Both the position numbers and the translations under genes were made by a program. The notes beneath the pieces were generated by a model. That model made no database searches. It saw only the letters and a list, made by a program, of their open reading frames with translations, and had not been told where the DNA came from. Shown here in pieces: positions 291 through 18,068 of a DNA stretch of 64,000 bases (position 1 is the stretch's first letter; the number at the start of each line of letters is the position of its first letter). Origin of the DNA: an uncultured Actinomycetota bacterium (GTDB lineage Bacteria > Actinomycetota > Humimicrobiia > Humimicrobiales > Humimicrobiaceae). The stretch is taken from positions 12,680 to 76,679 of the forward strand of contig CAZRVN010000004.1 in NCBI GenBank assembly GCA_964603595.1, given 5' to 3'.

Positions 291-2114
291 TTAATTCCTT
301 TTTTCTTTCCATTCCATTAATTCTTCCAGGGAGAACGTATTTAAAATATCCTTTTTCTCAAGTCCGGCCCTTCTCGCTATATCTACCCCCAATACAATCA
401 TATCCATGTTATTGGGACGGTGCGCATCTGTATTTATAACCAGTTTAACACCCATTTTCGCAGCTTTTCTTGCATTTTGTTCATTAAGGTCCATTCTTAA
501 AAAATATGAATTTATCTCCAGCGCTTTACCGTTTCTGGCTGCTGCTTCAATTAACCTGTCAATATCAACAGAATAAGGCGCCCTGCTTCCAAAAACAGCA
601 CCTGTGGGATGGCCTATAAAATCAATATATTTATTTTCAACCGCACTTACTACCCTATCGGTATTTTTAGTTTTTGAATTCAGATAAGAAGAGTGCATTG
701 AACCAATAGCTATTTCCATCTTCTTGATTATACTTTCAGGATAGTCAAGTTTGCCCGCTCCCTTTATATCTATCTCTGAACCCATTAAAATATGAAAATC
801 CTTATACCTGGATTTTAATTTGTTTATGTAGCCAATCTTTTCTAAAACCTTTTTATCATCAAGACCCCTGCCGTAATAATTGCTTACCGAGTGGTCTGTA
901 ATTGCCAGATATTCATAATTAAATTTTTTTATTATCCCAATCATATCATCAAGTTCCAGGGAACCATCGCTCCACCTAGAATGAACATGCAGGTCACCTT
1001 TTATATCATCCACAGTCAAAAGGGAAGGAAGCAAATTTTTCCCTGCCATTTCTATTTCATCCCGTCCCTCCCTTAATTCAGGAGGTATATACTCAAGACT
1101 AAGCATATTATATATTTTTTCTTCGGGACAGGAGCCGCCATCTGGCAATAAGCCCGCTTCCTGCCATTTATCTTCATCCGCATGATTGTTAACTTCAATC
1201 CTGCCATTTTTTATATATCCTTTTCTAAAAGCTATTTCCTCCAGTTTTTTTATATGTTTTTTGCTCCCTGTGGTATACAACATATCATAAGCCCAATTTT
1301 CCCTGCTGCTTATAATAAACTCCACTTCTATACCAAAAACAGTTTCGAACCTCGCGCTTGTACTCTCCTGCCTTATATCATTGCTCTTAAATCTTTTTAT
1401 AAAATTGAGTGCCTTTAATTCATCAAGCAGCTTCTCACTTTTTAATGAATCGTAAGCATTACTGTTAAAGCCGGGTAGTATAAGTATATCTATATCCTTA
1501 ACTACAGATTTTTTCCTTCTTAAGGAGCCGACTGTAACTGCTTTTTCTATACTTTTTATTTTAAAAAGGCAATTTTTTATTTCATCAATATAAAGTTCAA
1601 CTCTCCAGCGCGGATAAAGACCTTTTATACTTTCCATATAATCTATAGAGTCCTTTAGTCTATCATTATAAAAGGGATCGCTTTTACCAGAACCTGAAAC
1701 ATTTTCTGCAACAACATCTAAAACCTTGCTGTCCATACCACCCGCAAGTTTTTCTTTTAGTTCTTTAAGACCTTCTACATTTAAAGTTTCATAAACTTTA
1801 AACATTTTCCTTTTACCAAGGCCGCTTATTCTAACTAATCTTATTAAATCCTCGCTGTATCTTGATTTTAATTCTTCATAAAATCTGATACTTCCCCTTT
1901 CCATATATTCCATTACATACTCAAAGGCAAGCCCTTCCATGCCGTACAAATCTTTGATTTTTCTACTTCTGTAGATTTCTTCAATTCTTTTAGGTGTGTC
2001 TCTAAGCGTTCTTGCTGCCCCTATTAAATTTGAGACAGTTTTTATATCTGCACCGCCGGATTTTTTAACTTCTGCAATATCCGTGAGGATATCTGCCAGT
2101 TTCAGATTGATCAT
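291..2114 (-). CDS. Non-canonical PolX-PHP protein (degenerate polymerase site, intact PHP domain)
   Basis: GSLRRKKSVVKDIDIL palm motif; the third Asp position reads IEVEFII; YTTGSKKHIKKLE; PHP motifs DLHVHSRWSDG, ITDHS, EID, MHS, GHPTG, EINS, NTDAH. Confidence 0.9.
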   Translation of the reverse strand: MINLKLADILTDIAEVKKSGGADIKTVSNLIGAARTLRDTPKRIEEIYRSRKIKDLYGMEGLAFEYVMEYMERGSIRFYEELKSRYSEDLIRLVRISGLGKRKMFKVYETLNVEGLKELKEKLAGGMDSKVLDVVAENVSGSGKSDPFYNDRLKDSIDYMESIKGLYPRWRVELYIDEIKNCLFKIKSIEKAVTVGSLRRKKSVVKDIDILILPGFNSNAYDSLKSEKLLDELKALNFIKRFKSNDIRQESTSARFETVFGIEVEFIISSRENWAYDMLYTTGSKKHIKKLEEIAFRKGYIKNGRIEVNNHADEDKWQEAGLLPDGGSCPEEKIYNMLSLEYIPPELREGRDEIEMAGKNLLPSLLTVDDIKGDLHVHSRWSDGSLELDDMIGIIKKFNYEYLAITDHSVSNYYGRGLDDKKVLEKIGYINKLKSRYKDFHILMGSEIDIKGAGKLDYPESIIKKMEIAIGSMHSSYLNSKTKNTDRVVSAVENKYIDFIGHPTGAVFGSRAPYSVDIDRLIEAAARNGKALEINSYFLRMDLNEQNARKAAKMGVKLVINTDAHRPNNMDMIVLGVDIARRAGLEKKDILNTFSLEELMEWKEKRN

Positions 2115-2192
2115 TTTATAATATCCTATATGTTATAATACTAATATACTAAAATTTAAACCAAAGTATTATATCACGAATTACTCCATGTT

Positions 2193-2858
2193 ATGAAAGA
2201 AATAAATAATTCCAACATCAAAGACCATGATGAAAAATACCGGATACTCAGGGAGAATATGGTAGAAAATCAGATTGTTTCACGCGGTATTTTAAATAGC
2301 AGGGTCCTTGAAGTATTAAGAAAAGTTCCACGGCATATATTTGTAGATGAGGAATATATTGACTCAGCTTATGACGACAGGCCGCTTCCCATTGGTTCCG
2401 GGCAGACAATATCACAGCCGTATATAGTTGCACTTATGACAGAAAGCCTTGAACTCTCCGGAAATGAGAAAGTCCTGGAAATTGGCACCGGCTCGGGCTA
2501 CCAGGTAGCCATACTCGCCGGGCTGGCAAAAGAAGTCTATACCGTGGAAATAATCACTTCCTTATATAATAAAAATAAAAAGCTTCTTTCTGGATACAGC
2601 AATATAAAAATGAGCAACCATGACGGTTACCTTGGGTGGGAAGAATATTCCCCATACGACAGAATAATTGTCACCGCAGCACCTGACCACATTCCGCAAA
2701 CATTTATAGAACAGTTGAAGGACGGCGGGATTATGGTCATCCCCGTTGGCCCTTCAAGCTGGAGTCAGGTCCTATACAAGGTAATTAAAAGCAAAAATAG
2801 CATAAAAAAAATAAACCTGTGCGGCGTGGCTTTCGTGCCCCTGACCAGGATACAGTGA
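2193..2858 (+). CDS. pcm: Protein-L-isoaspartate O-methyltransferase
   Basis: VPRHIFV, AYDDRPLPIGSGQTISQPYIVA, VLEIGTGSGYQ, YDRIIVTAA, QLKDGGIMVIPVG. Confidence 0.95.
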   Translation: MKEINNSNIKDHDEKYRILRENMVENQIVSRGILNSRVLEVLRKVPRHIFVDEEYIDSAYDDRPLPIGSGQTISQPYIVALMTESLELSGNEKVLEIGTGSGYQVAILAGLAKEVYTVEIITSLYNKNKKLLSGYSNIKMSNHDGYLGWEEYSPYDRIIVTAAPDHIPQTFIEQLKDGGIMVIPVGPSSWSQVLYKVIKSKNSIKKINLCGVAFVPLTRIQ

Positions 2859-3009: not shown

Positions 3010-4500
3010 TTATTTAGTGTTATCAAAACTAAATTTTGCTTCCAGACCAATATGATCTGATACCGTATAGCTGATAAGAGAGCAGCTATTCCTGCTATCA
3101 GCCTGCATATAACAGCTTATCCCGGATAAAAACTGCTGGAAAAAGCAGGTACCGAAGTTGTATGGTATATCAGGATTTTCAGGTACCGGATTAATCGATT
3201 CCGGATCTATAACCGGATTACCGGAACCACCAAAGTAAAAAATATAATCAATTCTCTGAGGTCCGCCTGTTTCAACCGCAATTCGATTGCCCAGATCGCC
3301 ATAGGAATTCTCACTGCCGGTATTCCAATCCTTGCCTATCCATGTGAAACCCGGATCATCACCTTTTAAATCAAGCCATATATCTTCCAGGTAAATTTTA
3401 CCTTCCATATCAACTTCGGTAAAATTTTTAATCTCCCGACAAAACTCTCCATACTCCTGATGAGATACAGAAGTCAGATCAAAATTGCCGTTCTGCCCAT
3501 ATCCATCCGGAGGAGAAATTATTCCGGAAGAGTCCATCCAATCTTCATTTATATCAGCTGCAACGTTAAAGTCTCCCATAATTAAAATAGGATGGTAATT
3601 TTCTTCTTCCGGCTTAATAATCATTCCAATAAAATTTAGTAATTCTTTCAGGTTTTCCATGCGTGTCTCACTGTAATCATGAGACTGAAGATGGGTATTA
3701 AAAACATGTATATAATCCTCTTTTGACCGACCAATCTGAATCCTGGCGTATACCACACCTTTGTTGGCAAGAATATCTGTTCCGCTGCTTTCTGAAAAAC
3801 TAAACGCGCTGCATTCTGTTATAGGATATACTGATAATATCACCAGACCGCCGTCCTGCCTGATAGAAAGTCTTCCGCCTTCAGGACCCATTACATAATA
3901 AGGGCTACAAATAAGTCTTGCTTCCTTCCGGTTTGGCTTACAATCAATTACATGGACACCCAGCCAGCTGCCCTGCTCCGATAGTTCTGCAACATCCATG
4001 GCACTGGTAAGAGGTTGCAATATTTCTTTATCGGGATGTTCCATCGAGCCGTACCAGCTATTGAAATAATCATCTTCCCATTCGGCAGATGTTCCGCTAT
4101 TTATCCTGTCGTAAATTTTATTATGCCAGGCTGAAACAATTTGATTCTGACTGCTCCCGGCAAATACTTCCTGAAGTCCTATAATTCCATACCCTCCCAT
4201 TATTAAATCAATTATGCCATAGGTACGCTGGCGGTAAGCAGGTGCTACAAACGAAAATGGTATAAGCATTGTATTCTGGGTAAGAACTTTAACAGTTCCT
4301 TCCATACCTGAACCTGTAGATTGATATGCTTTAGAGTTATTTCCAGAATATTCTTTTTCCTGTTTTTCCGAAACTAATGATTTTATATCGTTCGTACATC
4401 CACCGGCAGTAGCAGCTAGTGAAGAAAAAATTATGATAACTATTACAGCAACAATATTTCCATATTTGAAAAACACCCTTTTTTTATATACCCATCTCAT
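3010..4500 (-). CDS. Endonuclease/exonuclease/phosphatase (EEP; sphingomyelinase/DNase I-like) family, probable lipoprotein
   Basis: TQN, GLQE, FNTHL, MGDFN, RIDYIF, SDH catalytic motifs; N-terminal hydrophobic segment ending AGGC. Confidence 0.8.
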   Translation of the reverse strand: MRWVYKKRVFFKYGNIVAVIVIIIFSSLAATAGGCTNDIKSLVSEKQEKEYSGNNSKAYQSTGSGMEGTVKVLTQNTMLIPFSFVAPAYRQRTYGIIDLIMGGYGIIGLQEVFAGSSQNQIVSAWHNKIYDRINSGTSAEWEDDYFNSWYGSMEHPDKEILQPLTSAMDVAELSEQGSWLGVHVIDCKPNRKEARLICSPYYVMGPEGGRLSIRQDGGLVILSVYPITECSAFSFSESSGTDILANKGVVYARIQIGRSKEDYIHVFNTHLQSHDYSETRMENLKELLNFIGMIIKPEEENYHPILIMGDFNVAADINEDWMDSSGIISPPDGYGQNGNFDLTSVSHQEYGEFCREIKNFTEVDMEGKIYLEDIWLDLKGDDPGFTWIGKDWNTGSENSYGDLGNRIAVETGGPQRIDYIFYFGGSGNPVIDPESINPVPENPDIPYNFGTCFFQQFLSGISCYMQADSRNSCSLISYTVSDHIGLEAKFSFDNTK

Positions 4501-4691: not shown

Positions 4692-5780
4692 ATGAGAACA
4701 GGAACGATGAACCTTCCCCTTCATGGAGGTAAAGCTCCTTTATGGTTATTTACCAGGATGAAAAAACTCTCCAGGGAAATAATTTCTATGATTGTTTCAG
4801 AATATGGCAGCCGCGAAATGCTCTGCCGGCTTTCAGACCCGCTGTGGTTCCAGGCCCTGGGGTGCGTGCTGGGTTTTGACTGGCACTCAAGCGGGGTAAC
4901 CACTACCGTCTGCGGAGCACTAAAAGAATCAATAAAAGGCCTTGAGAAAGACCTTGGTTTCTTTATAGCCGGCGGTAAAGGCGGAACTTCAAGAAAAACC
5001 CCTTCTGAAATTGAGAACGCTGCCAGCCTTATGGGAAAAGACTTTAATAATCTTATATACAGCAGCAAAATAGTAGCAAAAGTTGACAGTAACGCCCTGC
5101 AGGACGGTTACCAGCTTTATCACCATACCTTTATTTTCACCACTGACGGAAAGATGTGGTCAGTAATACAGCAGGGAATGAATGAAGAAAATAAAATGGC
5201 AAGAAGGTACCATTGGATATCGGAAGGCCTTAAAAGTTATATACTTGAGCCGCACAGGGCGATATGCTGCAATAAAAAAGGTAGGGCAATAAACCTTGTA
5301 GCCACCGAAAGCGAAAAGGCAAGAGAAACGGTTACCCTGCTCTCCTGCGAAAAACCAGTAAACATTATAAAAGATTTAAAAAAAGTAAGAAATTTTTTAG
5401 ATAATCACTATACCCTTCCTACCAGACATCATATAAGATTGCATGACATGGACTTAAAAAGGCTGGAAACAATCTTCACCTCCACTTACCAGAGGAAACC
5501 TGAAAATTTTGAGCGCCTCCTTGCCTTAAAGGGTGTTGGTCCCAAGACAATAAGAGCTCTGGCACTTATTTCAGAACTGGTATATGGAGTAAAATACAGC
5601 ATAAAGGACCCTGTAAGATTCAGTTTTGCACATGGGGGCAAGGACGGCATACCCTATCCGGTGGACAGGGAAAACTATAACCGTTCCATTGAGATTTTAC
5701 ATAAAGCAGTCAGGGATAGTAAAATTGGCAGAACAGAAAAAATAGGAGCAATAAAAAGACTTTCTTATTTCTATGGATAA
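4692..5780 (+). CDS. DUF763 family protein (C-terminal helix-hairpin-helix)
   Basis: RTGTMNLPLHGGKAPLWL, GFDWHSSGVTT, QQGMN, RRYHW, LKGVGPKTIRALAL, FSFAHGGKDGIPYPVD. Confidence 0.85.
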   Translation: MRTGTMNLPLHGGKAPLWLFTRMKKLSREIISMIVSEYGSREMLCRLSDPLWFQALGCVLGFDWHSSGVTTTVCGALKESIKGLEKDLGFFIAGGKGGTSRKTPSEIENAASLMGKDFNNLIYSSKIVAKVDSNALQDGYQLYHHTFIFTTDGKMWSVIQQGMNEENKMARRYHWISEGLKSYILEPHRAICCNKKGRAINLVATESEKARETVTLLSCEKPVNIIKDLKKVRNFLDNHYTLPTRHHIRLHDMDLKRLETIFTSTYQRKPENFERLLALKGVGPKTIRALALISELVYGVKYSIKDPVRFSFAHGGKDGIPYPVDRENYNRSIEILHKAVRDSKIGRTEKIGAIKRLSYFYG

Positions 5781-7512
5781 AGAAGAAATAATAAAAATCT
5801 TAAAAGATATAAGCGTATTCCTGGAACTAAAGGATGAAAACCCCTTTAAAATCAGGGCTTACCAGAATGCGGCCCGTGCACTGGAGTCATCTGATATTGA
5901 TTTAAATAAAAAATTAGAAATAAAAGACCTCACTGATATAAAAGGTATAGGGTCACATATCACGGAAAGAATAAAAGAATTAACCAGCGAAGGTAAACTC
6001 AAGCTCTATGAAGACCTTAAGAAATCTATTCCTTCCGGCCTTGTAGAAATGCTCTCGATCCCATCCATGGGCCCCAAAAAAATAAAATACCTTTATGATA
6101 ATCTTGGCATAAGCACCGTCGGAGAGCTTGAATATGCCTGCACTGAAAACCGCCTTCTAGATTTGCCTAATTTTGGTAAAAAGACACAGGATAATATCCT
6201 CAAAGGAATTGAGGTATTAAAAAAATACAAAGGTAAATATCTTTATGCAAAGATTATAAATGAAGCAGATGATATCCATAAAAAAATACAGGATTTCAAA
6301 TACACAAAAAGGTCCAGTCTCGCCGGAAGTGTCAGGAGGAAGAAGGAAATTGTTAAGGATATTGACATAGTAGCAAGCAGCGGACAGCCAGTTAAAGTAA
6401 TGGATTTTTTCACCGGCCTGGACGAGGCAGAAGATATAATTGCAAAGGGTGATACAAAATCCAGCATCAGGCTAAAGTCCGGTATTAACGTGGATATAAG
6501 GATTGTCGATGATAACCAATATCCCTACGCCCTTCTCCATTTTACCGGCAGCAAGGAACATAATACCGCCATGAGAACCACAGCTAAAAAAGATAACATA
6601 AAAATGAATGAATATGGACTTTACAAAAATGACCGGCTAATTAAATGTTCTGACGAGAAAGATATCTACGATTATTTTTCAATGGACTGGATACCTCCTG
6701 AACTCAGGGAGAATTACGGTGAAATTGAAGCCAGTAAAAACAAAAAACTTCCCCGGCTAATTGAAGGAAAAGATATAAAAGGTATATTCCATATACACAC
6801 CAACCATAGCGATGGCAACAACAGTTTAGAGCAGATATGTAACTATCTTAAGGAAAATGGCTTTCAGTATGCCGGTATAAGCGACCACAGTAAAACTGCC
6901 TCCTATGCAGGAGGAATAAAAGATAAAGAAATTGATAAATATTTAAAAGAAATAGATAAAATGAACAGGGAGCTTTCCGGATTCAAAACCTTTAAAGGTA
7001 TTGAATCCGATATCCTTCTGGATGGTAAACTTGATTATAAAGACAGTATTCTTGAAAAGTTTGATTTTATAATCGCTGCAGTTCATTCCAATTTTAATCT
7101 AAGTGAAGAGCAGATGACAAACAGGATTATAAAAGCCATTGAAAATAAATTTACTACCATTCTGGCCCATCCTACTGGAAGATTGCTTCTGGCAAGGGAC
7201 CCCTATAAGGTTGATATGACAAGAATAATAAACGCAGCTGCAGAGAGTAATGTAGATATTGAACTAAACTCAAGCCCTTACAGGATGGACCTTGACTGGA
7301 GGATGTGCAGGTACGCAAAGGAAAAAGGAATAAAGATCTTTATAAACCCGGACGCTCACAGCCTAAAGAATTTAGATGATTATAAATTCGGCGTAAATAT
7401 TGCAAGGAAGGGCTGGCTTGAAAAAAAAGATGTTCCCAATACCTTTTCTGTTGATAAAATAAGTAAATACCTGAAAGATAAAAAAACAACAAAACAGAAT
7501 AAAATAATTTGA
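5773..7512 (+). CDS. polX: DNA polymerase X with PHP 3'-5' exonuclease domain
   Basis: FKIRAYQNAA, KGIGSH, GSVRRKKEIVKDIDIV, NVDIRIV (third Asp), HFTGSKEHNTAMR; PHP HIHTNHSDG, SDHS, AHPTG, NPDAH. Confidence 0.95.
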   Translation: MDKEEIIKILKDISVFLELKDENPFKIRAYQNAARALESSDIDLNKKLEIKDLTDIKGIGSHITERIKELTSEGKLKLYEDLKKSIPSGLVEMLSIPSMGPKKIKYLYDNLGISTVGELEYACTENRLLDLPNFGKKTQDNILKGIEVLKKYKGKYLYAKIINEADDIHKKIQDFKYTKRSSLAGSVRRKKEIVKDIDIVASSGQPVKVMDFFTGLDEAEDIIAKGDTKSSIRLKSGINVDIRIVDDNQYPYALLHFTGSKEHNTAMRTTAKKDNIKMNEYGLYKNDRLIKCSDEKDIYDYFSMDWIPPELRENYGEIEASKNKKLPRLIEGKDIKGIFHIHTNHSDGNNSLEQICNYLKENGFQYAGISDHSKTASYAGGIKDKEIDKYLKEIDKMNRELSGFKTFKGIESDILLDGKLDYKDSILEKFDFIIAAVHSNFNLSEEQMTNRIIKAIENKFTTILAHPTGRLLLARDPYKVDMTRIINAAAESNVDIELNSSPYRMDLDWRMCRYAKEKGIKIFINPDAHSLKNLDDYKFGVNIARKGWLEKKDVPNTFSVDKISKYLKDKKTTKQNKII

Positions 7513-8213
7513 AAAATAATATGAATGCTAAAAGAAAAGCTAAAGGAGAAAATACTTCATATAAGGCTGCATATAAACCTGCATTAGAAAATATTGATAA
7601 GATAATTGATATCCTTAACCACGAATATCCAGAAACAGTTTCAACTTCACTCAAACACAAGAATGCATACCAGCTGCTTATCTCTACAATCCTTTCTGCA
7701 CAGAGCACTGATAAGCTGGTAAATAAAGTTACTCCGGAGCTTTTTAAAAAATACAAAACCCTTAAAGATTTTGCAATTGCAGATATAGCCCGGCTGCAGG
7801 AAGATATAAAATCCACCGGATTTTATAGAAACAAGGCAAAAAGTATAATTAGTTGTTCAAGGGATATAATGTATAAGTTTAACGGTGTAATGCCTGATAA
7901 TATTGAAGACTTAACCTCACTTCACGGTGTGGGAAGAAAGACCGCCAATGTCGTGCTTGCCAATGTATTCGGCAAACAGGCAATAATAGTGGATACCCAT
8001 GTCAGAAGAATTTCATACAGAATTGGGCTTACTATAAATAAAGACCCTGTTAAAATTGAGTTTGACCTTATGAAAATAATTCCAGAGAATAGCTGGAGTT
8101 ATTTTTCCCACAGAATAATTGCACTGGGACGAACAATATGCCTGGCAAAAAGCCCGAAATGTCCTGCATGCAAACTTTTAAAATACTGCAGGTATGGCCA
8201 GGAAAATACCTGA
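7509..8213 (+). CDS. nth: Endonuclease III (start may be ATG 7521)
   Basis: LISTILSAQSTD, GFYRNKAK, LHGVGRKTANVVL (HhH Lys), VDTHV, CLAKSPKCPACKLLKYC 4Fe-4S motif. Confidence 0.95.
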   Translation: MKNNMNAKRKAKGENTSYKAAYKPALENIDKIIDILNHEYPETVSTSLKHKNAYQLLISTILSAQSTDKLVNKVTPELFKKYKTLKDFAIADIARLQEDIKSTGFYRNKAKSIISCSRDIMYKFNGVMPDNIEDLTSLHGVGRKTANVVLANVFGKQAIIVDTHVRRISYRIGLTINKDPVKIEFDLMKIIPENSWSYFSHRIIALGRTICLAKSPKCPACKLLKYCRYGQENT

Positions 8214-9698: not shown

Positions 9699-10760
9699 AT
9701 GAAAATAGCAATTACTGCAGATATACACTTAAAAACTAAAGAAGAGTCCCCCGAGAGATGGAATGCTCTATCAAATATTCTTGATAAAATGCTCTCTGAA
9801 AATATTAATACACTTATTATAGCCGGCGACCTTTTTGATAAAGAAAGTCAGAACTATTCTGATTTTGATAAGTTTTGCACTAAAACAAAATACACCAGCA
9901 GCAATGTAAAATTCTATATAATCCCGGGTAATCATGACCCCTCTATAAGGCAGGAATATTTTACCTCCGGGAATATAAAAGTTTTCAGTAGCCCTGAAGT
10001 TCTTACATCAGAAAGTTCATCTGCGGCTTTCTTTTTTACACCTTACCTGCCGGCAAGTTCTATGGGGGAAATTATAGCCGAACATAATAAAAAGCTAACC
10101 AATACATGGATTTTGATAGGACATGGCGATTATGCATCAGGACTGCACAAACCCAATCCTTATGAACCCGGTATTTACATGCCCTTAACCAGAAACGATA
10201 TACAGTATTATAACCCCGCCAGGGTTATCCTGGGACATCTTCATAAAAAAATAAATCTCGGTAAAGTTTATTATCCCGGCTCGCCCTGCGGTCTGGATAT
10301 AAATGAAACCGGTAAAAGGAGCTTTTTAATTCTGGACGCAGGCACGCTGGAAATAACAGAAAAGCAAATTGATACCGACATTATATTCTTTAATGAAAAC
10401 CTTATATCACTCCCCACCACTAATGAATTTGAATTTATAAAAAAAGAGATAAGCAAAATGATAGACAAATGGGATATATCCAAAAACGAGATACCAAAGG
10501 TAAGACTCCGCTTAAAGATCAAAGGATATACTTCCAATAAAATAAAACTTTCCGACACAATTAATAAAGCACTAAAAGATTTTTCTTTTTATAATAATGA
10601 GCAGCCGGATTTAACTGAAGTTTCGTTATTTAATGACCCGGAAAGAATAACTATTATAGAAAATCTAAAAAATGAGATTGAAAAACTTGAATTAGAAAGT
10701 GAGATCTTCTCAAAGGAAGATATACTGGAAAAAGCACTCCACATAGTTTTAAAGCAATAA
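9699..10760 (+). CDS. Mre11/SbcD-like metallophosphoesterase nuclease (YhaO-like)
   Basis: ITADIH, IAGDLFD, PGNHD, IGHG, LGHLH, YYPGSP. Confidence 0.88.
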   Translation: MKIAITADIHLKTKEESPERWNALSNILDKMLSENINTLIIAGDLFDKESQNYSDFDKFCTKTKYTSSNVKFYIIPGNHDPSIRQEYFTSGNIKVFSSPEVLTSESSSAAFFFTPYLPASSMGEIIAEHNKKLTNTWILIGHGDYASGLHKPNPYEPGIYMPLTRNDIQYYNPARVILGHLHKKINLGKVYYPGSPCGLDINETGKRSFLILDAGTLEITEKQIDTDIIFFNENLISLPTTNEFEFIKKEISKMIDKWDISKNEIPKVRLRLKIKGYTSNKIKLSDTINKALKDFSFYNNEQPDLTEVSLFNDPERITIIENLKNEIEKLELESEIFSKEDILEKALHIVLKQ

Positions 10761-10794
10761 AGGTAACAATTATTTAAGATACAGGGAAATTTAA

Positions 10795-12927
10795 ATGGGA
10801 GTTAAAATTGATAAAATATCAGTAAAAGACCTGGGGCCAATTAAGGAATTTTTGGCCGCCTTTGGAATATTTAACCTTATTTACAGCAAGAACGAAAGGG
10901 GAAAGACTTTCTTTACTGAATTCTTAATACGCTCACTATTTAAAAATACCAGCCGCTGGAGTTATTTAAGAAGCGGGGGAAAAGGAAAGGTCACTTTAAG
11001 CGGCCTTGATAAACACCCTGTTGATTTTACCTGTTCCTCTCCAAAGAAGCTTGAAGATTACTGGGAAAAAAGTGAGAAGGGGCTCCCTCTATCCATGGCA
11101 AAACTTTTGATAGTAAAAGGCGGAGAAGCCGGGATCGAGGATAATGGGAGCATAAGCAAATTTTTAATCAAGGAAGTTTTATCCGGTATAAATATTCTTG
11201 ATAAGATTGACAGCGACAGTAATATCCAGTCAACTGTTAAGTCTGCAAAAATCACTAACAGCCGCATTGATATAAATGATAAAGGAGAAGGGAAAAAATA
11301 CCATGACATCAAAAATAAACTGGAAAAAATTGATAATCTTTTTGAAGAAATAGAATCAGGATATACACAGGGGATATTAAAAACTTATCAGCTGAAAAAA
11401 GAAACACTGCTTGATAAATTAGCAAGACTTAAACAGGCTAAAAAGCATCTTGCATATTTAATTTCAGAAGAAATCAAAAAATTAAATTCAGAGCTATCCG
11501 ATATTCCTGACAGTGAATTAAACAGCATAGAAAAAGAAATTTTTCTTTACAGAAGCAAGAAAAACACATTAAGCAAGACGGAAAAAGATTATAAAGATGC
11601 ATCTCTTAAAAGCAAAGACTTTAAATGGCTTGAAAGCGCACTATCCCATTACAGAGAGCTGCTATCAAAAAATGTAAAAAGACCGGGAAAAATCCTGCCT
11701 GTACTTTGCGGATTGTTTACAGCCAGCGGAATAGCTGCTTTCGCAGCAGCGCTTTTCATGTACCGGAATACTACAGAATCCCTTATGCTATTATTACTTG
11801 GGATCATAGGTTTCTCCTTTTTAGGTCTAATTACATCCGCACTCTTTTACTTTAAAAAACTCTATAACTTTTTAAGGCAGGCAGGGCAAAATGAAGAATT
11901 AAATAGAATAAGGGTAGAATTTAAAAAAAGAACCGGTAAAAATCTTGCAGATATCTCATCCCTGGAATCAACCCTAAACGGGCAAAGGGAACACAACAGC
12001 AGACTTTCATTATTGGAAAGCCAGATTAATCCTCTTAAAAAGGAACTGGGTGATTCTATTTTTAATATCAATCAGAAAATAAAAAAGCTCTGCCGAAAAG
12101 AAATTGGAGAAAAGGAATGGGATGAAAAAATAGAAAGTTTAAAAAAGAGAAATGCTAGTTTGAAAAACGAGGTTCATAAACAAGAAATAGAATTATCTAA
12201 ATTGCAGTTATCCGAGCAGGATTATCTTGCCGAAGAGACAGATACCGCATACAGCCGGGAAGAGCATGAAAAAACTTCAGACGAGATTGCAGATACCCTG
12301 GAAGAAATAAAAAATCAGGAAGATAGAATCCAAAATTTAAAATATAAAATCTGTGAAAAGACCGGAGATGACCCCAGCATTGGCTGGGAAGAGCTTATTA
12401 ATAATCTACAGAGTAAAAGAGGCGAAACTGAAAAGGAGCTTAAAGATATTTCTGCCGGTATAATAGCCGGCCTTACAGTACATAATGTTATTTTAAGTTT
12501 GCGCAGAGAAGAAGACCAGAAAATAAAAGAAGGATTAAAGTCAAAAGTTGTAACAGGACCTTTGAAAGCTATTACCCAGAGATATGACAACCTTACTATT
12601 AAAAATAATAACCTGATTGTTTCAGACCCCTACGACAGCTTTGATATAAAGGATTTAAGTACCGGAGCAGTTGAACAGGTAATGCTTGCGTTAAGGATCG
12701 GCTTTACCTCAAAATTATTAAAAGAAGACAGCCTGTTTTTAATCCTTGATGATGCATTCCAGCATTCGGACTGGGAAAAACGCGAAATTATTATAGAAAA
12801 GCTGGCAGAAATTGCAAAAAATGGATGGCAGATAATCTACCTCACCATGGATGACCATATAAAAGGATTATTTGAGAAAAAAGGCAGGGAATTTAAAAAA
12901 GGTGGATATAAAAGTTTCGAGTTGTAA
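10795..12927 (+). CDS. Rad50/SMC-like ATPase (YhaN/SbcE-like) with central coiled coil and two TM segments
   Basis: N-terminal Walker A variant YSKNERGKT; C-terminal LSTGAVEQ signature, LILDDAF Walker B; long coiled coils; hydrophobic segments in the middle. Confidence 0.82.
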   Translation: MGVKIDKISVKDLGPIKEFLAAFGIFNLIYSKNERGKTFFTEFLIRSLFKNTSRWSYLRSGGKGKVTLSGLDKHPVDFTCSSPKKLEDYWEKSEKGLPLSMAKLLIVKGGEAGIEDNGSISKFLIKEVLSGINILDKIDSDSNIQSTVKSAKITNSRIDINDKGEGKKYHDIKNKLEKIDNLFEEIESGYTQGILKTYQLKKETLLDKLARLKQAKKHLAYLISEEIKKLNSELSDIPDSELNSIEKEIFLYRSKKNTLSKTEKDYKDASLKSKDFKWLESALSHYRELLSKNVKRPGKILPVLCGLFTASGIAAFAAALFMYRNTTESLMLLLLGIIGFSFLGLITSALFYFKKLYNFLRQAGQNEELNRIRVEFKKRTGKNLADISSLESTLNGQREHNSRLSLLESQINPLKKELGDSIFNINQKIKKLCRKEIGEKEWDEKIESLKKRNASLKNEVHKQEIELSKLQLSEQDYLAEETDTAYSREEHEKTSDEIADTLEEIKNQEDRIQNLKYKICEKTGDDPSIGWEELINNLQSKRGETEKELKDISAGIIAGLTVHNVILSLRREEDQKIKEGLKSKVVTGPLKAITQRYDNLTIKNNNLIVSDPYDSFDIKDLSTGAVEQVMLALRIGFTSKLLKEDSLFLILDDAFQHSDWEKREIIIEKLAEIAKNGWQIIYLTMDDHIKGLFEKKGREFKKGGYKSFEL

Positions 12928-12985: not shown

Positions 12986-13870
12986 TTAAACCTTACCCAT
13001 GTTTTCTTCTTTTTCTTCATCACTTTGAACATCTTTTTCCGTTTTTAAACCTATGCTGGACATCTCAACAAGGGTACCGGTCGGGCATGCTTTTATACAT
13101 TCCCCGCAGAGAGTACACTTCTTATAATCAAATTCAGGTATAGCTTTCTCATCATTCCAGATTATTGCATCATATTCACATGCTTTGAAACATTTTTTGC
13201 AATGCAGGCAGCCGCTGCTACATTTTTCCCTACCGGGAATATTTCTAAGAGGCTTATAGTTACATAAATAAACCACTTTTGAGCCTGCCGGGATAAGTTC
13301 TATTGCATTCATCGGGCATTCCTTCACACAAATACCGCAGCCGGTACACTTATCCGTATCTACTGCAGCCACATGCGTTTCCTCATTAATATATATGGCA
13401 TTAACAGGACAAGCTTCAACACAATCCCCCAGCCCAAGGCAGCCATAGGGGCACTTCTTGAAACCGCCAATCATTTTTGAAGCAGTCTTACATTTTTCTA
13501 TACCACTGTAATTTCCAATTAATTCTGCATTGCCCGAACAACGGACTACTGCTTTTTTTTTCATTGCAGAAGAATCTATTTTAATACCAAGGACCCTTTC
13601 CAGTCCTTCAAGCATATCCGGCTCCTGCAGAACAGTGGTACAGGGACTTTTACTAAAAATATCTTTATCCTCTGCCAGTGCCTGTGCATAAGCAAAACAC
13701 CCCGGATATCCACAGGCGCCACAATTAGCCCCTGGCAGGTATTTTGCAATTTTTTCAGTTTTCCTTAATGAATCTGGCTCTTTGGGAAGAAACCTGTTTA
13801 CCAGAAAAATCAGTATCCCGCATATAATCCCTATTGAGCTCAAAATTATAATAATTAAACCTGTGCTCAT
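12986..13870 (-). CDS. rnfB: Rnf complex subunit B (polyferredoxin type)
   Basis: N-terminal TM, LPGANCGACGYPGC, four further CxxCxxCxxxC-type clusters. Confidence 0.93.
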   Translation of the reverse strand: MSTGLIIIILSSIGIICGILIFLVNRFLPKEPDSLRKTEKIAKYLPGANCGACGYPGCFAYAQALAEDKDIFSKSPCTTVLQEPDMLEGLERVLGIKIDSSAMKKKAVVRCSGNAELIGNYSGIEKCKTASKMIGGFKKCPYGCLGLGDCVEACPVNAIYINEETHVAAVDTDKCTGCGICVKECPMNAIELIPAGSKVVYLCNYKPLRNIPGREKCSSGCLHCKKCFKACEYDAIIWNDEKAIPEFDYKKCTLCGECIKACPTGTLVEMSSIGLKTEKDVQSDEEKEENMGKV

Positions 13871-13929
13871 AATCTAATAACCAATCCTAAATTCCTAAAA
13901 TAAAATTGTATTATACTTTCCATGCCATT

Positions 13930-14505
13930 CTATGCCATCCCATTAAATCCCAAAAATGCCATTGCAAGTAGAGCCGCAGTTAAGAAAGCTACCGGCAGAC
14001 CCTTCATGGATTTTGGAGCATCAGCAAGATCCAGCTTCTCCCTTATCCCCGACATTATTATAAGAACCAGGGTAAAACCAATGCCTGCCCCCAGAGCACT
14101 AACAACGCTTTCCAGAATTGAGTAATTCTCCGTTGAGTTTATAAGAGTTATACCCAGAACAGCACAATTAGTGGTTATCAGCGGCAGATATATTCCCAGA
14201 GCATTGTAAAGTATTATATTAGTCCGCTTGATTGTCAGCTCTACTATCTGGACCAGGGAAGCTATCACTAGTATATATATTACAATATTCATGAATTCAA
14301 CCCCATAGGGCACCAAAATATAATTATAAATAACTGATGTCGATACAGAAGCAATAAGCATAACCAGAGTCACTGCTATACCCATGCTGAAAGCATTTGA
14401 TAATTTTTTAGATACTCCGAAAAAAGGACACAGGCCAAGAAATTTAACCAGAACAATATTATTCACAAAGATCATTACTATAAATATGGTTAAAAGATTA
14501 TTCAT
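13930..14505 (-). CDS. rnfA: Rnf complex subunit A
   Basis: NNIVLVKFLGLCPFFGVSKK, GIYLPLITTNCAVLG. Confidence 0.95.
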   Translation of the reverse strand: MNNLLTIFIVMIFVNNIVLVKFLGLCPFFGVSKKLSNAFSMGIAVTLVMLIASVSTSVIYNYILVPYGVEFMNIVIYILVIASLVQIVELTIKRTNIILYNALGIYLPLITTNCAVLGITLINSTENYSILESVVSALGAGIGFTLVLIIMSGIREKLDLADAPKSMKGLPVAFLTAALLAMAFLGFNGMA

Positions 14506-15184
14506 CTTTTATCACCCCTGTTAACTTGAATAATGCCATAAGAATTCCTATTACCAGGAAAGCTCCCGCAGGAGAAATAAAAAACGCCAGCGGATATGAA
14601 GAAAGGCCCGGCAGTTGAAAAAGCTGCTTTCCGAATATCTCAACGCCTCCTGTCCCCAGCACTTCTCTTAAAAAAGAGATCATTATAAGGGCAATGGCAA
14701 AGCCCAGTCCAATCCCCAGTCCATCAGCTATAGAAAGAAGTACAGGATTTTTAGAAGCAAATGCTTCCGCCCTTCCCAGAATAATGCAATTTACCACGAT
14801 AAGAGACAGATAAATTCCCAGTGATTCATAAAGCGGCGGAAAATATGCTTCAAATACCAAGCTTAAAATAGTTACAAAAGTAGCAATTACAACAATAAAA
14901 ACAGGTATCCTGACCAGAGGAGGTGTTGCTTTTCTAATACCGGAAATTATGATATTCGAACAGAGAAGGACAAATATTACTCCTGCGCTCATCCCCAGGG
15001 CGTTGTTAACAGTATTTGTAACAGCCAGTGTAGGACAGAGCCCCAGGGTAAGTATAAATACAGGATTTGATATTATAATCCCTTTTAAAAATTCCTTCCA
15101 GAATTTTTTTCCATCATCTGTCTTTGATTTGGCCATATCCTTATTATCGCTCATCCTGTAACCTAATTCTCCCCTGTTATTCAA
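14498..15184 (-). CDS. rnfE: Rnf complex subunit E
   Basis: NPVFILTLGLCPTLAVT, RIPVFIVVIATFVT, LIVVNCIILGRAEAFA. Confidence 0.95.
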   Translation of the reverse strand: MNNRGELGYRMSDNKDMAKSKTDDGKKFWKEFLKGIIISNPVFILTLGLCPTLAVTNTVNNALGMSAGVIFVLLCSNIIISGIRKATPPLVRIPVFIVVIATFVTILSLVFEAYFPPLYESLGIYLSLIVVNCIILGRAEAFASKNPVLLSIADGLGIGLGFAIALIMISFLREVLGTGGVEIFGKQLFQLPGLSSYPLAFFISPAGAFLVIGILMALFKLTGVIKDE

Positions 15185-15211
15185 TAGATTATTAATAAAA
15201 AGATATAATTT

Positions 15212-15769
15212 TTATTTTTCCAGGTCCCCTACTACTTCAGCCATTTTACCCCGTATAGCATCCACAACAGCTCTTGAACTTATAGTAGCCCCTGTTATGG
15301 CGTCTATCTTACCGCCCTCTGACTTAAGGACAACTTCGCTTAAAGACATACCTTTAAACTGGTCTGTAAAAGAAACTTCAGCTATTCTTGCACCAAGTCC
15401 AGGTGTTTCAGCCTGTGACAGTATTGATATCCCCTTAATTTCAAAACCGGTGTCCAGACCCACCAGTATCTCAATTTCTCCGCCATAGCCATTACCGGAA
15501 GCCTTAAAAGCGTAACCGGTCTTTTCCCCGTCCTGGTATATGACATATATTTCATCTTCAATTTCATAGCGGCTCATTTGAGGAAAAATAATTTCAAGTG
15601 TTTTTTTTGTTTCTTCGGCCTTTCTTAACTCCAGCACTGGCGACGTAACACTACTTATTAACAACAGCAAACTTACAGAAATTATAACAATTACTGCCAG
15701 AAAAATAATTGGATATGCTTTATTTGATAAAAATTTTTTAAGCATTTTTCCTTTTTTTATAAAAACCAA
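15212..15769 (-). CDS. rnfG: Rnf complex subunit G (true start probably ATG 15745)
   Basis: GYGGEIEILVG, ETPGLG, DAITGATISS FMN-binding Thr motif. Confidence 0.93.
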   Translation of the reverse strand: MVFIKKGKMLKKFLSNKAYPIIFLAVIVIISVSLLLLISSVTSPVLELRKAEETKKTLEIIFPQMSRYEIEDEIYVIYQDGEKTGYAFKASGNGYGGEIEILVGLDTGFEIKGISILSQAETPGLGARIAEVSFTDQFKGMSLSEVVLKSEGGKIDAITGATISSRAVVDAIRGKMAEVVGDLEK

Positions 15770-16691
15770 ATGGTTTTAATTTAACATATTTATCAATAAG
15801 GGGAGCAAAGGCATTCATAATAAGTATTGAAAAAGATACTCCTTCGGGCATATTACTAAAATTCCTGATAAGCACAGTTAATACTCCCAGCCCTATACCA
15901 AATATTATTCTTCCTCTCCTGGTTACAGGTGAAGTTACGTAATCAGTAGCCATGAAAAACGCGCCTATCATCAGACCCCCAGCCAGAACCTGTAATAATA
16001 CATCTTTTCCCATTATAAAAGAGCCAAAAGCTACAACCCCGATATAAAATACCGGTATTCTCCAGTCTATTACATGAAACGCTATAAGGATTAATGCTCC
16101 AACCAGTATAAGCATTGCCGACGTTTCCCCCAGGGAGCCCCCGGTGTTTCCAAAAAATAAATCCTTGTATAATGAAATTTTATCCGCCTGATAGGTAAAA
16201 TTTTCTCCCAGCGGGGTAGCGCCGGTTATAGCATCATAATTAAAATTAGGAGGAATAACCCAGGTAGTCATTTCTCTGGAAAAACACATTGTCAGGAATG
16301 CCCTTCCAGCAAGGGCAGGGTTAAATATATTATATCCCAGCCCCCCGAAGGCTTCTTTTGCTATAGCTATGGCAAAAAAGGAGCCCAGAGCAGCCATCCA
16401 GAGAGGTAACCTCGGCGGAAGTGTCAGTGCAAAAAGAAGCCCTGTAATTACTGCACTTCCGTCCATTATAAATCTTCTTCTTCTAAGCTTTTTTATAACA
16501 AACTCGGTAAGCACAGCAGTTACAACACTTGTAAGTATTAAATAAATTGCGTAATATCCGAAAAAATAAATACTGGCAGCGGTAGGAAAAAGAAGAGCAA
16601 ATACTACCATATACATTATCTTACCCGTAGAGAATCCTCTCCATATATGGGGTGCATGGGAAATTAATATATTATTATTTTTCACTTCCAC
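15738..16691 (-). CDS. rnfD: Rnf complex subunit D
   Basis: FNPALAGRAFL, DAITGATPL FMN site, GSLGETS, FFMATDYVTSP. Confidence 0.95.
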   Translation of the reverse strand: MEVKNNNILISHAPHIWRGFSTGKIMYMVVFALLFPTAASIYFFGYYAIYLILTSVVTAVLTEFVIKKLRRRRFIMDGSAVITGLLFALTLPPRLPLWMAALGSFFAIAIAKEAFGGLGYNIFNPALAGRAFLTMCFSREMTTWVIPPNFNYDAITGATPLGENFTYQADKISLYKDLFFGNTGGSLGETSAMLILVGALILIAFHVIDWRIPVFYIGVVAFGSFIMGKDVLLQVLAGGLMIGAFFMATDYVTSPVTRRGRIIFGIGLGVLTVLIRNFSNMPEGVSFSILIMNAFAPLIDKYVKLKPFGFYKKRKNA

Positions 16692-16712
16692 TTTTTCTTC
16701 TTTTCCTAACCA

Positions 16713-18068
16713 TTATTTTTTTGACAGCTCACTTTTACAGGTTTTTATATACCCTACAATAGGAATATTTGCAGGACAAACATATGAACAGGCACCACAT
16801 TCAATACAATTGTCTATATAATATTCCTTACAGGCCTCAAATTTTTTCTTTTTTGTATTCCTTACATACATAAGAGGCATAAGATCCATAGGGCATGCAT
16901 CTATACATCTTCCACAATTTATACAGTTCTGCTCATCCTGCAACCTCCTTTTCTTGACCAGTATACAATTTGTTCCCTTTGTTACAGGGAAGTCAGTATT
17001 AGCAAAGGAGATGCCCATCATGGGTCCGCCGGCTATTATAGAATTAAATTCACTCCTGTATCCTCCACACTTTTCAATCAATGATCTGATAGAGGTACCC
17101 AGCCTCACTTTAAGGTTTTTAGGATTTGTAATAGCTCCTGTGACTGTAACTACTCTTTCTATTAGCGGTTTACCTTCAATTACGGCATCATATATTGATT
17201 TAGCAGTAGCAATGTTATTTACTATGACCCCCACATCCATCGGAAGTCCGCCCATAGGAACAGACCTTCCTGTTATGGTTTTTATCAGGGTTTTTTCTGC
17301 TCCCATAGGATACCTCGATTTAAGAGAAACTATCTTAAACAAATCATCAAGATTCATCATCACAATAAGTTTCTCCAGATGTTCTATGGCATCTTTTTTA
17401 TTATCTTCTATCCCTATATAAACATTCTGAGGTGAAAGCAATTTGAATATAATGTAAAGCCCCATAAGGACTTCCCTGCCTTTTTCAAGCATAACCCTGT
17501 GGTCCGAGGTTATAAATGGCTCACATTCACAGCCATTTAAAATAATTGTATAAATCTTTTTTTCCGGAGGAGGTTTAAGTTTTACATGGGTTGGGAATGC
17601 TGCCCCGCCCAATCCAACAATTCCTGCTTCTCTTATCTTTTTTAATACTTCCTCTTTATCTATACTGCCTATGATTCTTTTTAAACTAAAAAAGTCATCT
17701 GATTCTCTTATATTAAATAATTCGTCGCATTCAACCCGGGAATCTTCTCCGTCCGATTTTATAACTGCTGCATCCATTACATTGCTGGTTATCGGATTTA
17801 CCATTTTTATAATCTTTGAAACTTCTCCCGAGATGGATGAATGAATGGGGGCAGAAACATATCCTTTTGAATCGGCAATTTTCTGCCCGGTTTTAACCAT
17901 ATCCCCCCTTCTCACCATAAATTCACAGGAGGCGCCAATATTTTGCTGGAGTGGAATGACCGCTTCTCCGGGGACAGGCAAATCCTCTATCGACTTTTCA
18001 GCAGTTATTTTATTTTCAGGCAGGGATAGTCCTCTAAATGATCTTTTCTTTTTAAAAACAATTTTCAT
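16713..18068 (-). CDS. rnfC: Rnf complex subunit C
   Basis: GIVGLGGAAFPTHVKL, NGCECEPFITSD, YPMGAEK, CINCGRCIDACP, CIECGACSYVCP. Confidence 0.95.
   Translation of the reverse strand: MKIVFKKKRSFRGLSLPENKITAEKSIEDLPVPGEAVIPLQQNIGASCEFMVRRGDMVKTGQKIADSKGYVSAPIHSSISGEVSKIIKMVNPITSNVMDAAVIKSDGEDSRVECDELFNIRESDDFFSLKRIIGSIDKEEVLKKIREAGIVGLGGAAFPTHVKLKPPPEKKIYTIILNGCECEPFITSDHRVMLEKGREVLMGLYIIFKLLSPQNVYIGIEDNKKDAIEHLEKLIVMMNLDDLFKIVSLKSRYPMGAEKTLIKTITGRSVPMGGLPMDVGVIVNNIATAKSIYDAVIEGKPLIERVVTVTGAITNPKNLKVRLGTSIRSLIEKCGGYRSEFNSIIAGGPMMGISFANTDFPVTKGTNCILVKKRRLQDEQNCINCGRCIDACPMDLMPLMYVRNTKKKKFEACKEYYIDNCIECGACSYVCPANIPIVGYIKTCKSELSKK

Follow-up and report, generated by a model that had tools for sequence, protein, structure and literature searches.

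A DDE-type PolX-PHP protein encoded beside a canonical PolX in Humimicrobiia-type Actinomycetota

The stretch of DNA considered here, referred to throughout as the window, comprises 64,000 nucleotides from an uncultured Actinomycetota bacterium of the lineage Humimicrobiaceae (GenBank assembly GCA_964603595.1, contig CAZRVN010000004.1, positions 12,680 to 76,679), with a G+C content of approximately 35%. Close to its start lie two genes for PolX-PHP proteins, in which a DNA polymerase beta (Pol beta)-like core and a PHP nuclease domain share one polypeptide. One of them, the variant protein ALT, carries glutamate in place of the third catalytic aspartate of the palm and is the subject of this analysis; the other, CAN, is a canonical PolX (table 1). 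ALT is interpreted as a functional member of a PolX-PHP subfamily that would have specialized away from faithful, template-checked gap filling, a reading to which a probability of about 55% is assigned. The start codons of ALT and CAN are separated by 3,659 bp, in line with the spacing of about 3.7 kb given in the original prediction, a first reading of the sequence made without database searches. ALT lies divergent from pcm across a 78-bp spacer and convergent with a gene for a radical S-adenosylmethionine (SAM) protein outside the window start, and appears to be monocistronic. The DUF763 gene, CAN and nth are taken as one operon because their starts and stops overlap by 8 and 4 nt.

ALT and CAN align from end to end with 31% identity (E = 2e-86). 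That ALT is a complete PolX-PHP protein follows from a full-length alignment to Thermus thermophilus PolX (ttPolX), a confident structural model and the superposition of this model on a solved ttPolX complex. The nearest solved structure is ttPolX 3au2 (E = 1.8e-71; residues 3–606 onto 3–572). The AlphaFold2 (AF2) model, built from a 25-sequence alignment, reaches a predicted local distance difference test score (pLDDT) of 88.2 and a predicted template modelling score (pTM) of 0.89, and is disordered only at residues 138–145 and 310–327. The top fold in a Foldseek search with this model is the ttPolX primer/template ternary complex 3au6 (template modelling scores 0.81/0.87). The domain order is that of the PolX1 architecture: 8-kDa domain, fingers, palm, thumb, linker and PHP. 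Profile searches distinguish the two proteins more sharply. Pfam assigns to ALT the PHP and Pol beta thumb domains, with a palm match below threshold, and neither HHH_8 nor any other helix-hairpin-helix (HhH) model matched; CAN has HHH_8, HHH_5, Pol beta thumb and PHP. The NCBIfam equivalog NF006375 (DNA polymerase/3'-5' exonuclease PolX), with a curated cut-off of 426 bits, is passed by CAN at 570.6 bits and failed by ALT at 347.7 bits. Database relatives of ALT are named merely 'PHP domain-containing protein'.

Table 1. Features of the ALT–CAN locus, in window coordinates.
Feature	Coordinates	Strand	Remarks
ALT	291..2114	-	variant PolX-PHP, 607 aa, 'DDE-type' subfamily
ALT PHP domain, residues 373-607	294..998	-	all nine metal ligands
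R-A-G (canonical K/R-G-W)	363..371	-	basic residue (Bacillus subtilis K545 equivalent) retained, Trp lost
GHPTGA	597..614	-	metal ligand H502; A506 at B. subtilis R469 position (DNA-binding path)
ALT Pol beta-like core, residues 1-350	1065..2114	-	8-kDa domain, HhH2 subdomain, palm, deoxynucleoside triphosphate (dNTP) subdomain; from ttPolX alignment
dNTP-pocket helix YTTGSKKHIKKLE	1239..1277	-	T-G-S, K285, H287 retained; F272->T, N279->I, R283->E
EVEFI	1314..1328	-	E265 for third Asp; E263 at Pol beta R254; I267 for R258
LPGFN	1464..1478	-	subfamily-specific insertion directly after DxD strand
DIDIL	1482..1496	-	D207 and D209, first two catalytic carboxylates; 100% conserved
GSLRR	1515..1529	-	equals Pol beta 179-GSFRR-183, triphosphate binding; retained; G196, S197, R199, R200 invariant in 117 sequences
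Second HhH hairpin GLGKRK	1806..1823	-	primer-strand-binding in Pol beta-like cores; retained
First HhH hairpin GMEG	1932..1943	-	degenerate (subfamily G-I-D/E; canonical G-I-G)
ALT–pcm intergenic region	2115..2192	.	AT-rich, 78 bp; two opposed extended -10-like boxes
Extended -10-like box TGTTATAAT	2131-2139	+	consensus match only
Extended -10-like box TGATATAAT	2176-2168	-	consensus match only
pcm	2193..2858	+	protein-L-isoaspartate O-methyltransferase; Pfam PCMT E = 1.5e-58; divergent from ALT
DUF763 gene	4692..5780	+	Pfam DUF763 E = 9.5e-136; overlaps CAN start by 8 nt
CAN	5773..7512	+	canonical PolX-PHP, 579 aa
nth	7509..8213	+	endonuclease III-like HhH-GPD glycosylase; Pfam HhH-GPD E = 3.1e-25; overlaps CAN stop by 4 nt

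Residues kept and replaced in ALT

Core positions are given in Pol beta numbering where the two proteins are compared. The strand that carries the third carboxylate was numbered 253-RRIDIRL-259, which we take to be its register in Pol beta. For the other motifs, the correspondence of Prostova et al. (2022; PMC9226535) was followed, which equates ttPolX 187-GSARR-191 and 258-YLTGSKAHS-266 with Pol beta 179-GSFRR-183 and 271-YFTGSDIFN-279. When ALT is aligned to ttPolX, its D207 and D209 coincide with D198 and D200, and the third catalytic aspartate, D243, is matched by E265. The palm triad thus consists of three acidic residues, D207/D209/E265 (DDE). The third position is Glu in 116 of 118 aligned family members and Gln in the other two. 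The motifs around the triad are KDIDILIL and GIEVEFII in ALT, against KDIDIVAS and GINVDIRI in CAN, and the dNTP-pocket motif is YTTGSKKHIKKLE against HFTGSKEHNTAMR. ALT I288 aligns to ttPolX S266, the N279 position, and E292 occupies the R283 position. In the 8-kDa domain, the lyase signature RAYQNAARAL (AYxxAA) of CAN is LIGAARTL in ALT, and GIGS is GMEG. The motif-level claims of the original prediction are borne out by these alignments: the DID motif is kept with no Asp at the third position, the nucleotide-binding Asn and Arg are lost, and so are the lyase-domain signatures.

Across the subfamily, metal ligands, triphosphate ligands, the cis-peptide Gly-Ser and the basic residue at 276 are frozen. 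D207, D209, E265, S197, R200, G283-S284 and K/R285 are invariant or nearly so. ALT itself retains the G274-S275 motif with Lys at 276; in 18 loci this basic residue is Lys or Arg in all but one, and GS or GN is conserved. As judged from the alignment, what is replaced are the minor-groove contacts to the primer terminus, the incoming base and the template base (Y271, N279, R283), together with the steric-gate Phe and the R258 switch. Ile replaces R258 in 98% of ALT proteins, whereas 97% of canonical sequences have Arg there. The YF/HF steric gate reads Y-T in ALT, its first position being variable in the subfamily and its second T, A or S, and I, L or V stands at N279. Read at positions S180, R183, D190, D192, R254, D256, R258, Y271, F272, G274, S275, D276, N279 and R283, the subfamily signature is S R D D [D/E] E I x T G S [K/R] [I/L/V] [E...]. 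The canonical signature is S R D D Q/N D R Y/H F G S K N R, of which CAN has the form S R D D N D R H F G S K N R.

The remainder of the core has features of its own. Motifs common to the 118 aligned sequences are GSxRRKK, DxD, the Glu, TTGSKxH[ILVF]xxLE and AARTxRD. More than 20 subfamily-specific core residues are conserved at 90% or above, among them E15, K18, T36, R38, D39, Y86, R95, F105, Y108, R152, Y159, R169, K201, W274 and the inserted LPxFN. Conservation of the insertion is 0.99 at P214, 0.99 at F216 and 1.00 at N217, and positions 216–217 are gapped in 97% of canonical PolX proteins. The ALT palm thus has insertions (LPxFN, T258) without the deletions of altered PolXs. Elements that contact the gap are degenerate. 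The second Gly of the first HhH hairpin (HhH1), present in 67/67 canonical sequences, is D, E, N or K in ALT proteins; the Pol beta K72 position is Lys in 59/67 canonical sequences and Leu in 93/117 of the ALT type; and the canonical GFGxK is replaced. The second hairpin (HhH2) is preserved, with G98 in 117/117 and G100 in 113/117, followed by K/R-K.

The PHP domain keeps all nine metal ligands (H376, H378, D383, H408, E447, H474, H502, D563 and H565), as had been claimed at the outset, and the HHDHEHHDH pattern holds in 117/117 family members; yet the domain is not unchanged. Six PHP residues of B. subtilis PolX (F440, R469, R474, N498, R503 and K545) are required for every nucleolytic activity of that enzyme (Rodriguez et al. 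2019; PMC6616362). ALT retains five of them, as F/Y477, R511, N535, R540 and R582, and hence four of the five residues of the DNA path (the R474, N498, R503 and K545 equivalents). The sixth is R469, whose change to Ala in B. subtilis PolX lowers AP (apurinic/apyrimidinic)-endonuclease efficiency 300-fold, exonuclease 36-fold and DNA affinity 11-fold (PMC6616362). Arg stands here in 67/67 canonical sequences and V, F, I or A in 117/117 of the ALT type (ALT residue 506, window 597–599). Likewise, a Trp invariant in canonical proteins (CAN W548; 67/67) is Gly in 117/117 (ALT residue 584, window 363–365). The exchange of Arg for a hydrophobic residue and of Trp for Gly may be a mutual structural compensation or may reflect an altered substrate preference. 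The two substitutions, found in 117/117 ALT proteins and 0/67 canonical ones, may be a co-evolving pair.

Descent, selection and loss of CAN

ALT-type proteins have a narrow distribution. The closest 120 database relatives, 44–100% identical to ALT, were compared, and the altered motifs occur in all of them; those that are named come from Humimicrobiaceae, Hydromicrobium or 'Actinobacteria bacterium' metagenome-assembled genomes (MAGs). Among 1.84 billion cluster representatives, approximately 10 clusters are of the ALT type (350–625 bits), followed by ordinary PolX proteins at no more than 318 bits. In a search of 185,579 species genomes, ALT-type matches were confined to the loci L001–L019 (44–67% identity), nearly all labelled as Actinomycetota, Actinomycetes or Humimicrobiaceae MAGs and two merely as 'bacterium'. 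The next-best PolX proteins belong to other phyla and are 31–36% identical to ALT. The subfamily signature was recovered from 18 genomic loci and extends to distant representatives of only 42% identity. ALT therefore appears to represent a small, old subfamily, so far seen only in Humimicrobiia-type Actinomycetota MAGs; a literature search found no paper discussing PolX in Humimicrobiia.

ALT and CAN are not close relatives of each other. Neighbour joining of 89 PolX sequences recovered an ALT clade and a CAN clade in 200/200 bootstraps each, and placed them as sisters in 0/200. A recent tandem duplication was rejected on these grounds. The term 'twin' used in the original prediction thus does not fit two deeply separate clades, the 31% identity between ALT and CAN being matched by the 31–36% between ALT and PolX proteins of other phyla. 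The apparent sisters of ALT in the tree are long-branch altered PolXs (L049, L022, L035 and L050), a grouping regarded as long-branch attraction. ALT may have arisen either by horizontal gene transfer or by ancient paralogy. An archaeal origin, raised by a 'Methanosarcinales archaeon' record (P0080), was rejected, as the contig has the order nth-polX-pcm / ALT / radical-SAM of the actinobacterial MAGs. A contig deposited under this name, L112 (DATKUT010000019.1), has the same arrangement, and its label probably reflects mis-binning in the public database.

Selection was estimated from the ratio of nonsynonymous to synonymous substitution rates (dN/dS), as medians over 14 locus pairs with unsaturated dS in which both genes are present. 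The median is 0.27 for the ALT core (interquartile range 0.24–0.30) and 0.17 for the ALT PHP domain, and 0.086 and 0.118 for the corresponding parts of CAN; a separate trio of loci gave the same pattern. Values for ALT range from 0.15 to 0.34 in the core and from 0.07 to 0.25 in PHP. At longer distances in the same genomes, divergence of the ALT core is 1.4–2.7 times that of the CAN core, while that of PHP is only 1.2 times as great. The gap is widest in the dNTP subdomain (2.7 times), where ALT is 45% identical and CAN 80%. ALT is clearly under purifying selection, about three times weaker on its core than on the CAN core and strongest on PHP. In ALT the nuclease has taken over from the polymerase core as the more constrained part, the reverse of the situation in CAN.

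The juxtaposition of the two genes, to which the original prediction had drawn attention, recurs widely. ALT and CAN lie within approximately 4 kb of each other in 10 of 14 informative loci among L001–L019. With CAN as the query against metagenome contigs, a scan that covered close relatives only (73–89% identity), ALT was found in 16/16 loci with sufficient upstream sequence. CAN is absent from its syntenic slot in L010, L017, L009, L013 and the P0067 contig, with nth also absent in L009 and L013, and in L085 it is split into open reading frames (ORFs) of 112 and 467 aa. The event is best resolved in L017. Its flanks on both sides are 89% identical to those of L011, and where L011 has 1,722 bp with CAN (5537–7259), L017 has approximately 6 bp (5575–5582). 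Since remnants of both gene ends persist, this loss is a clean deletion between DUF763 and nth. ALT is intact, with its whole signature, wherever CAN is missing or split. Retention of ALT after deletion of CAN argues against an obligate heterodimer.

Possible functions of the DDE-type protein

The most informative comparison is with the noncanonical PolX proteins defined by Prostova et al. (2022; PMC9226535), which have partially or totally lost the three acidic residues of the triad and are efficient Mn2+-dependent 3'-5' exonucleases without polymerase activity. According to the same study, canonical PolX has N279 in 92.9% and YF or HF in 94% of sequences, the PolX proteins of Actinomycetota are almost only canonical, and inactive noncanonical proteins drift into hundreds of triad variants, mostly lose the GS motif and the basic residue at 276, and have deletions in palm and fingers. 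About half of the genomes with two PolX proteins pair a canonical with a noncanonical one, usually from distant clades, and cooperation between the types may be beneficial (PMC9226535). Such pairing is thus already published. Like the noncanonical proteins of Deinococcus radiodurans and D. gobiensis, ALT has the full core and PHP, a fully conserved PHP site, a hydrophobic residue for Asn279, no YF/HF gate and stronger selection on the nuclease than on the polymerase site, and it can coexist in one genome with a canonical PolX of a distant clade. Unlike them, it keeps three carboxylates, GSxRR, GS and the basic residue at 276, has palm insertions instead of deletions, and shows a frozen site instead of drift. 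It also forms its own clade of Actinomycetota MAGs with two subfamily-wide changes on the PHP surface. The original prediction had invoked altered-triad exonucleases; the loss-of-acid criterion of this study excludes ALT, its Table S1 counting DDE (21 sequences) as canonical.

ALT is no closer to being an ordinary canonical PolX. Its best sequence and fold matches are the canonical enzymes of B. subtilis (YshC/PolX) and T. thermophilus (3au2, 3au6 and 3auo), with which it has in common an identical domain order, DxD, GSxRR, TGSK-H, HhH2, the IPPELRE linker, the nine PHP ligands and equivalents of R474, N498, R503 and K545. It differs from them in the Glu for the third Asp, in the replacement of R258, F272, N279, R283, the second Gly of HhH1, the Lys at K72 and GFGxK, in the loss of the PHP R469 equivalent and the invariant Trp, and in its score below the NCBIfam equivalog threshold. 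The same change of the third carboxylate has been engineered in human Pol beta, where D256E lowers activity approximately 1000-fold without abolishing it; R254, which positions D256, loses its contact (PMC5499815). That protein is a single mutant in an otherwise intact site, whereas in ALT positions 254 (acidic) and 258 (Ile) are altered as well, and the change is fixed by selection. A further comparison is offered by the stand-alone 'PolX-like' PHP proteins of Actinobacteria (PMC12926913). These belong to the same phylum and fit the idea that the PHP nuclease matters more than synthesis, but they have no polymerase region, whereas ALT keeps a complete core under selection. According to a report on ttPolX, its exonuclease requires both the POLXc and the PHP domain (PMC2665239), which would be a reason for selection to preserve the ALT core.

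The association of Glu at the third position with other losses extends beyond ALT. Among the 150 best representatives, a biased sample in which kinship was not corrected for, 16/16 DDE proteins, including 8 that do not belong to the ALT clade, are without R258 and F272 and 15/16 without N279, whereas N279 is present in 69/86 DDD proteins. This suggests that the change from Asp to Glu generally travels with the loss of template reading.

Taken together, these comparisons make ALT very unlikely to be a polymerase that fills gaps faithfully. Selection most likely acts on its PHP phosphoesterase activity, by which ALT probably complements CAN. The mechanism proposed on this reading has five elements. 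(i) ALT would work mainly as a PHP phosphoesterase on DNA 3' ends, as a 3'-5' exonuclease, 3'-phosphatase or 3'-phosphodiesterase, possibly with AP incision. (ii) The polymerase-like core would serve as a DNA-holding module through HhH2. (iii) This core may still bind metal and nucleotide, with templated synthesis poor or nil. (iv) ALT would act independently of CAN, which would fill gaps within the DUF763-polX-nth base-excision operon. (v) The changed PHP surface suggests a substrate preference unlike that of canonical PolX. The division of labour proposed in the original prediction is therefore plausible in outline, given the shift of selection towards PHP, the lost base-pair-reading residues and the failed equivalog cut-off. 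The label 'polymerase-dead' goes too far: three carboxylates remain, DDE is counted as canonical, the metal and triphosphate ligands are invariant, and D256E in Pol beta reduces activity but does not abolish it. Nor is the idea of a heteromeric partner upheld, for ALT is intact where CAN has been deleted (L017) or is absent or split.

Several observations weigh against a specialized 3'-end phosphoesterase. Strict conservation of D207, D209, E265, GSxRR, GS and K/R285 is what would be expected of an active nucleotidyltransferase, and the published classification would call the DDE triad canonical. The PHP domain is without the Arg whose mutation cuts DNA binding most in B. subtilis PolX, and without the invariant Trp; the ALT nuclease could be weaker, or directed beyond the usual DNA ends. 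The 14 pairs behind the dN/dS medians overlap phylogenetically and are not independent. Loss of CAN is established for the syntenic locus only. Unrelated genes for NikR, a methyltransferase, the radical SAM protein and a helix-turn-helix (HTH) protein are collinear as well, and since these neighbours also recur, the linkage of ALT to the base-excision repair operon may be mere collinearity.

Because the carboxylates and the triphosphate pocket are conserved, ALT may still have a residual or changed role in nucleotidyl transfer or nucleotide binding. In its strongest form, ALT would be a working nucleotidyltransferase with relaxed rules, performing low-fidelity, template-tolerant or ribonucleotide-using end extension in the manner of Pol mu, TdT or the LigD polymerase domain, with PHP trimming the ends. 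Near-invariance of the metal and triphosphate residues down to 42% identity speaks for this, as do the purifying selection on the core (dN/dS 0.27), the listing of DDE as canonical, and the contrast with truly inactive PolXs, in which the triad drifts and GS and the basic 276 residue are lost. LPxFN beside the DxD strand looks like remodelling of the site and not like its loss, and active human Pol lambda likewise has Ile in place of R258. Such a transferase is nevertheless doubtful, for D256E alone costs Pol beta approximately 1000-fold, no part of ALT diverges faster than the dNTP subdomain (2.7 times the CAN rate), and the DDE triad co-occurs in several PolX lineages with loss of N279, F272 and R258, as in altered PolXs. 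The elements that bind the 5'-phosphate and the gap are also gone, and ALT falls below the equivalog cut-off. A move to another substrate is unlikely on present evidence. ALT would then act on RNA or RNA–DNA ends, nucleotides, or protein-linked or phosphorylated termini, with the core as a ligand-binding domain. The two exchanges in the DNA path of PHP (R469 to V/F/I/A and Trp to Gly, both 117/117), the loss of HhH1 and GFGxK with the nucleotide-binding pocket kept, and the constant pairing with pcm, itself a repair enzyme for spontaneous damage, point in this direction; conservation of four of five DNA-path residues, of an aromatic at the Phe440 position and of an invariant HhH2, together with the best superposition of the predicted fold on a DNA-bound ttPolX complex, points back to DNA.

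The remaining alternatives concern whether ALT has a function of its own. It is improbable that ALT is an obligate partner or subunit of CAN, an inactive copy that scaffolds or regulates the active one. Proximity of the genes within approximately 4 kb in most clade genomes (10/14, and 16/16 with the CAN query) and the published suggestion that PolX types may profit from cooperation would suit such a complex. The clean deletion of CAN in L017 under a full ALT signature, the empty syntenic spots in L010, L009, L013 and the P0067 contig and the split gene in L085 do not, and ALT and CAN lie on opposite strands in different transcription units among unrelated neighbours that are collinear too. Least credible by far is a decaying duplicate without selected function. 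ALT does diverge faster than CAN in every domain, and its Pfam palm and HHH_8 matches are below threshold; but the frame is intact in every full-length locus examined, dN/dS is low in both parts, dozens of residues are invariant, subfamily-specific motifs exist, the AF2 model is confident and ALT is kept where CAN is lost. Decay into a pseudogene, an outcome that the original prediction had allowed for, is ruled out by the dN/dS values (0.27 for the core, 0.17 for PHP) and the conservation.

A broader and distinctly tentative proposal is that DDE-type PolX-PHP proteins constitute a functional class of their own, in which the pocket is kept for the triphosphate of a metal–nucleotide and template reading has been discarded. 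They might be template-independent or ribonucleotide-adding transferases with a PHP trimmer, or PHP nucleases gated by (d)NTP bound in the vestigial polymerase site, in either case serving long-term DNA maintenance in slow-growing anaerobes in co-regulation with Pcm. Were this so, the retention of ALT where CAN is deleted would make ALT the more important PolX. The classification of PolX proteins rests on the three acidic residues of the triad, and here DDE goes with lost base-pair-reading and gap-binding residues and with frozen metal and triphosphate ligands. Some of the proteins counted as 'canonical' are therefore probably no gap fillers, and those with a DDE triad call for a dedicated assay. 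Related genomes with ALT and CAN, or with ALT alone, provide a natural experiment on which of the PolX functions these slow-growing anaerobes cannot do without. Should the nucleotide pocket regulate or redirect the PHP nuclease, this would be a new reuse of a polymerase active site; if ALT is merely an exonuclease-only PolX, a published phenomenon would be extended to a new phylum-level lineage.

Neighbouring genes and the remainder of the window

The gene order nth-CAN-DUF763-pcm / ALT / radical SAM-HTH is found again and again in the ALT subfamily. As evidence of functional coupling, however, this order loses weight, since the NikR, methyltransferase, radical SAM and HTH genes are collinear too. 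The pcm gene adjoins ALT in 15/15 loci of L001–L019 with an upstream flank, in 16 metagenome loci, in L084, L085 and L112 and in the P0067 contig, but not in L083. Each of the two -10-like boxes in the intervening spacer lies approximately 54 nt from its ATG, and both recur across the subfamily. A promoter and terminator scan gave 21 promoter-like matches, against 33 in shuffled sequence, and only the two conserved boxes stand out. The predicted 5' untranslated regions (UTRs) of ALT and pcm would overlap in antisense. In the subclade of L010, L011, L012, L014 and L017, a GC-rich inverted repeat with compensatory changes lies between the boxes and could be an operator or a 5'-UTR hairpin.

Between pcm and the DUF763 gene, positions 3010–4500 (minus strand) encode a 496-aa protein of the endonuclease/exonuclease/phosphatase (EEP) family with a weak sphingomyelin-phosphodiesterase-like match and a hydrophobic N-terminus. 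This insertion is found only in the window and its near relatives L092, L095, L100, L107, L108 and L110; in other family members pcm is followed directly by DUF763 or CAN. The DUF763 protein is essentially uncharacterized: it has no sequence match in the PDB, and a literature search gave a passing mention only. It has an HhH-like stretch at its C-terminus, is the most constrained gene of the island (dN/dS 0.06–0.11) and is a candidate new base-excision repair factor. A general linkage of DUF763 to PolX was rejected: DUF763 lies within 10 kb in 1 of 61 PolX loci of other phyla, and the association is lineage-specific.

Rfam and tRNA scans of the window found nothing, and tandem repeats are unremarkable. 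Downstream of the repair island, positions 9699–10760 (plus strand) encode a 353-aa calcineurin-like phosphoesterase with weak SbcD/Mre11-like N-terminal matches, below all curated cut-offs. The adjacent gene, for a 710-aa protein, has no domain match; its orthologous neighbour in the P0067 contig has a weak AAA_27 match. This pair (9699–12927, plus strand) may be a divergent nuclease of the SbcCD/YhaON type. A locus for carbohydrate uptake and degradation at 22712–33390 comprises a LacI regulator, an ATP-binding cassette (ABC) solute-binding protein with two permeases, a GH16 protein with CBM4/9 and a GH130 phosphorylase, along with an ORF of 1103 aa (27588–30899) that has no Pfam match. Positions 12986–19156 (minus strand) hold a complete Rnf-type ion-translocating ferredoxin:NAD+ oxidoreductase cluster, consisting of an RnfB-like FeS protein, two Rnf-Nqr membrane subunits, an FMN-binding subunit, RnfD and RnfC, with ApbE in addition, which fits an anaerobic lifestyle.

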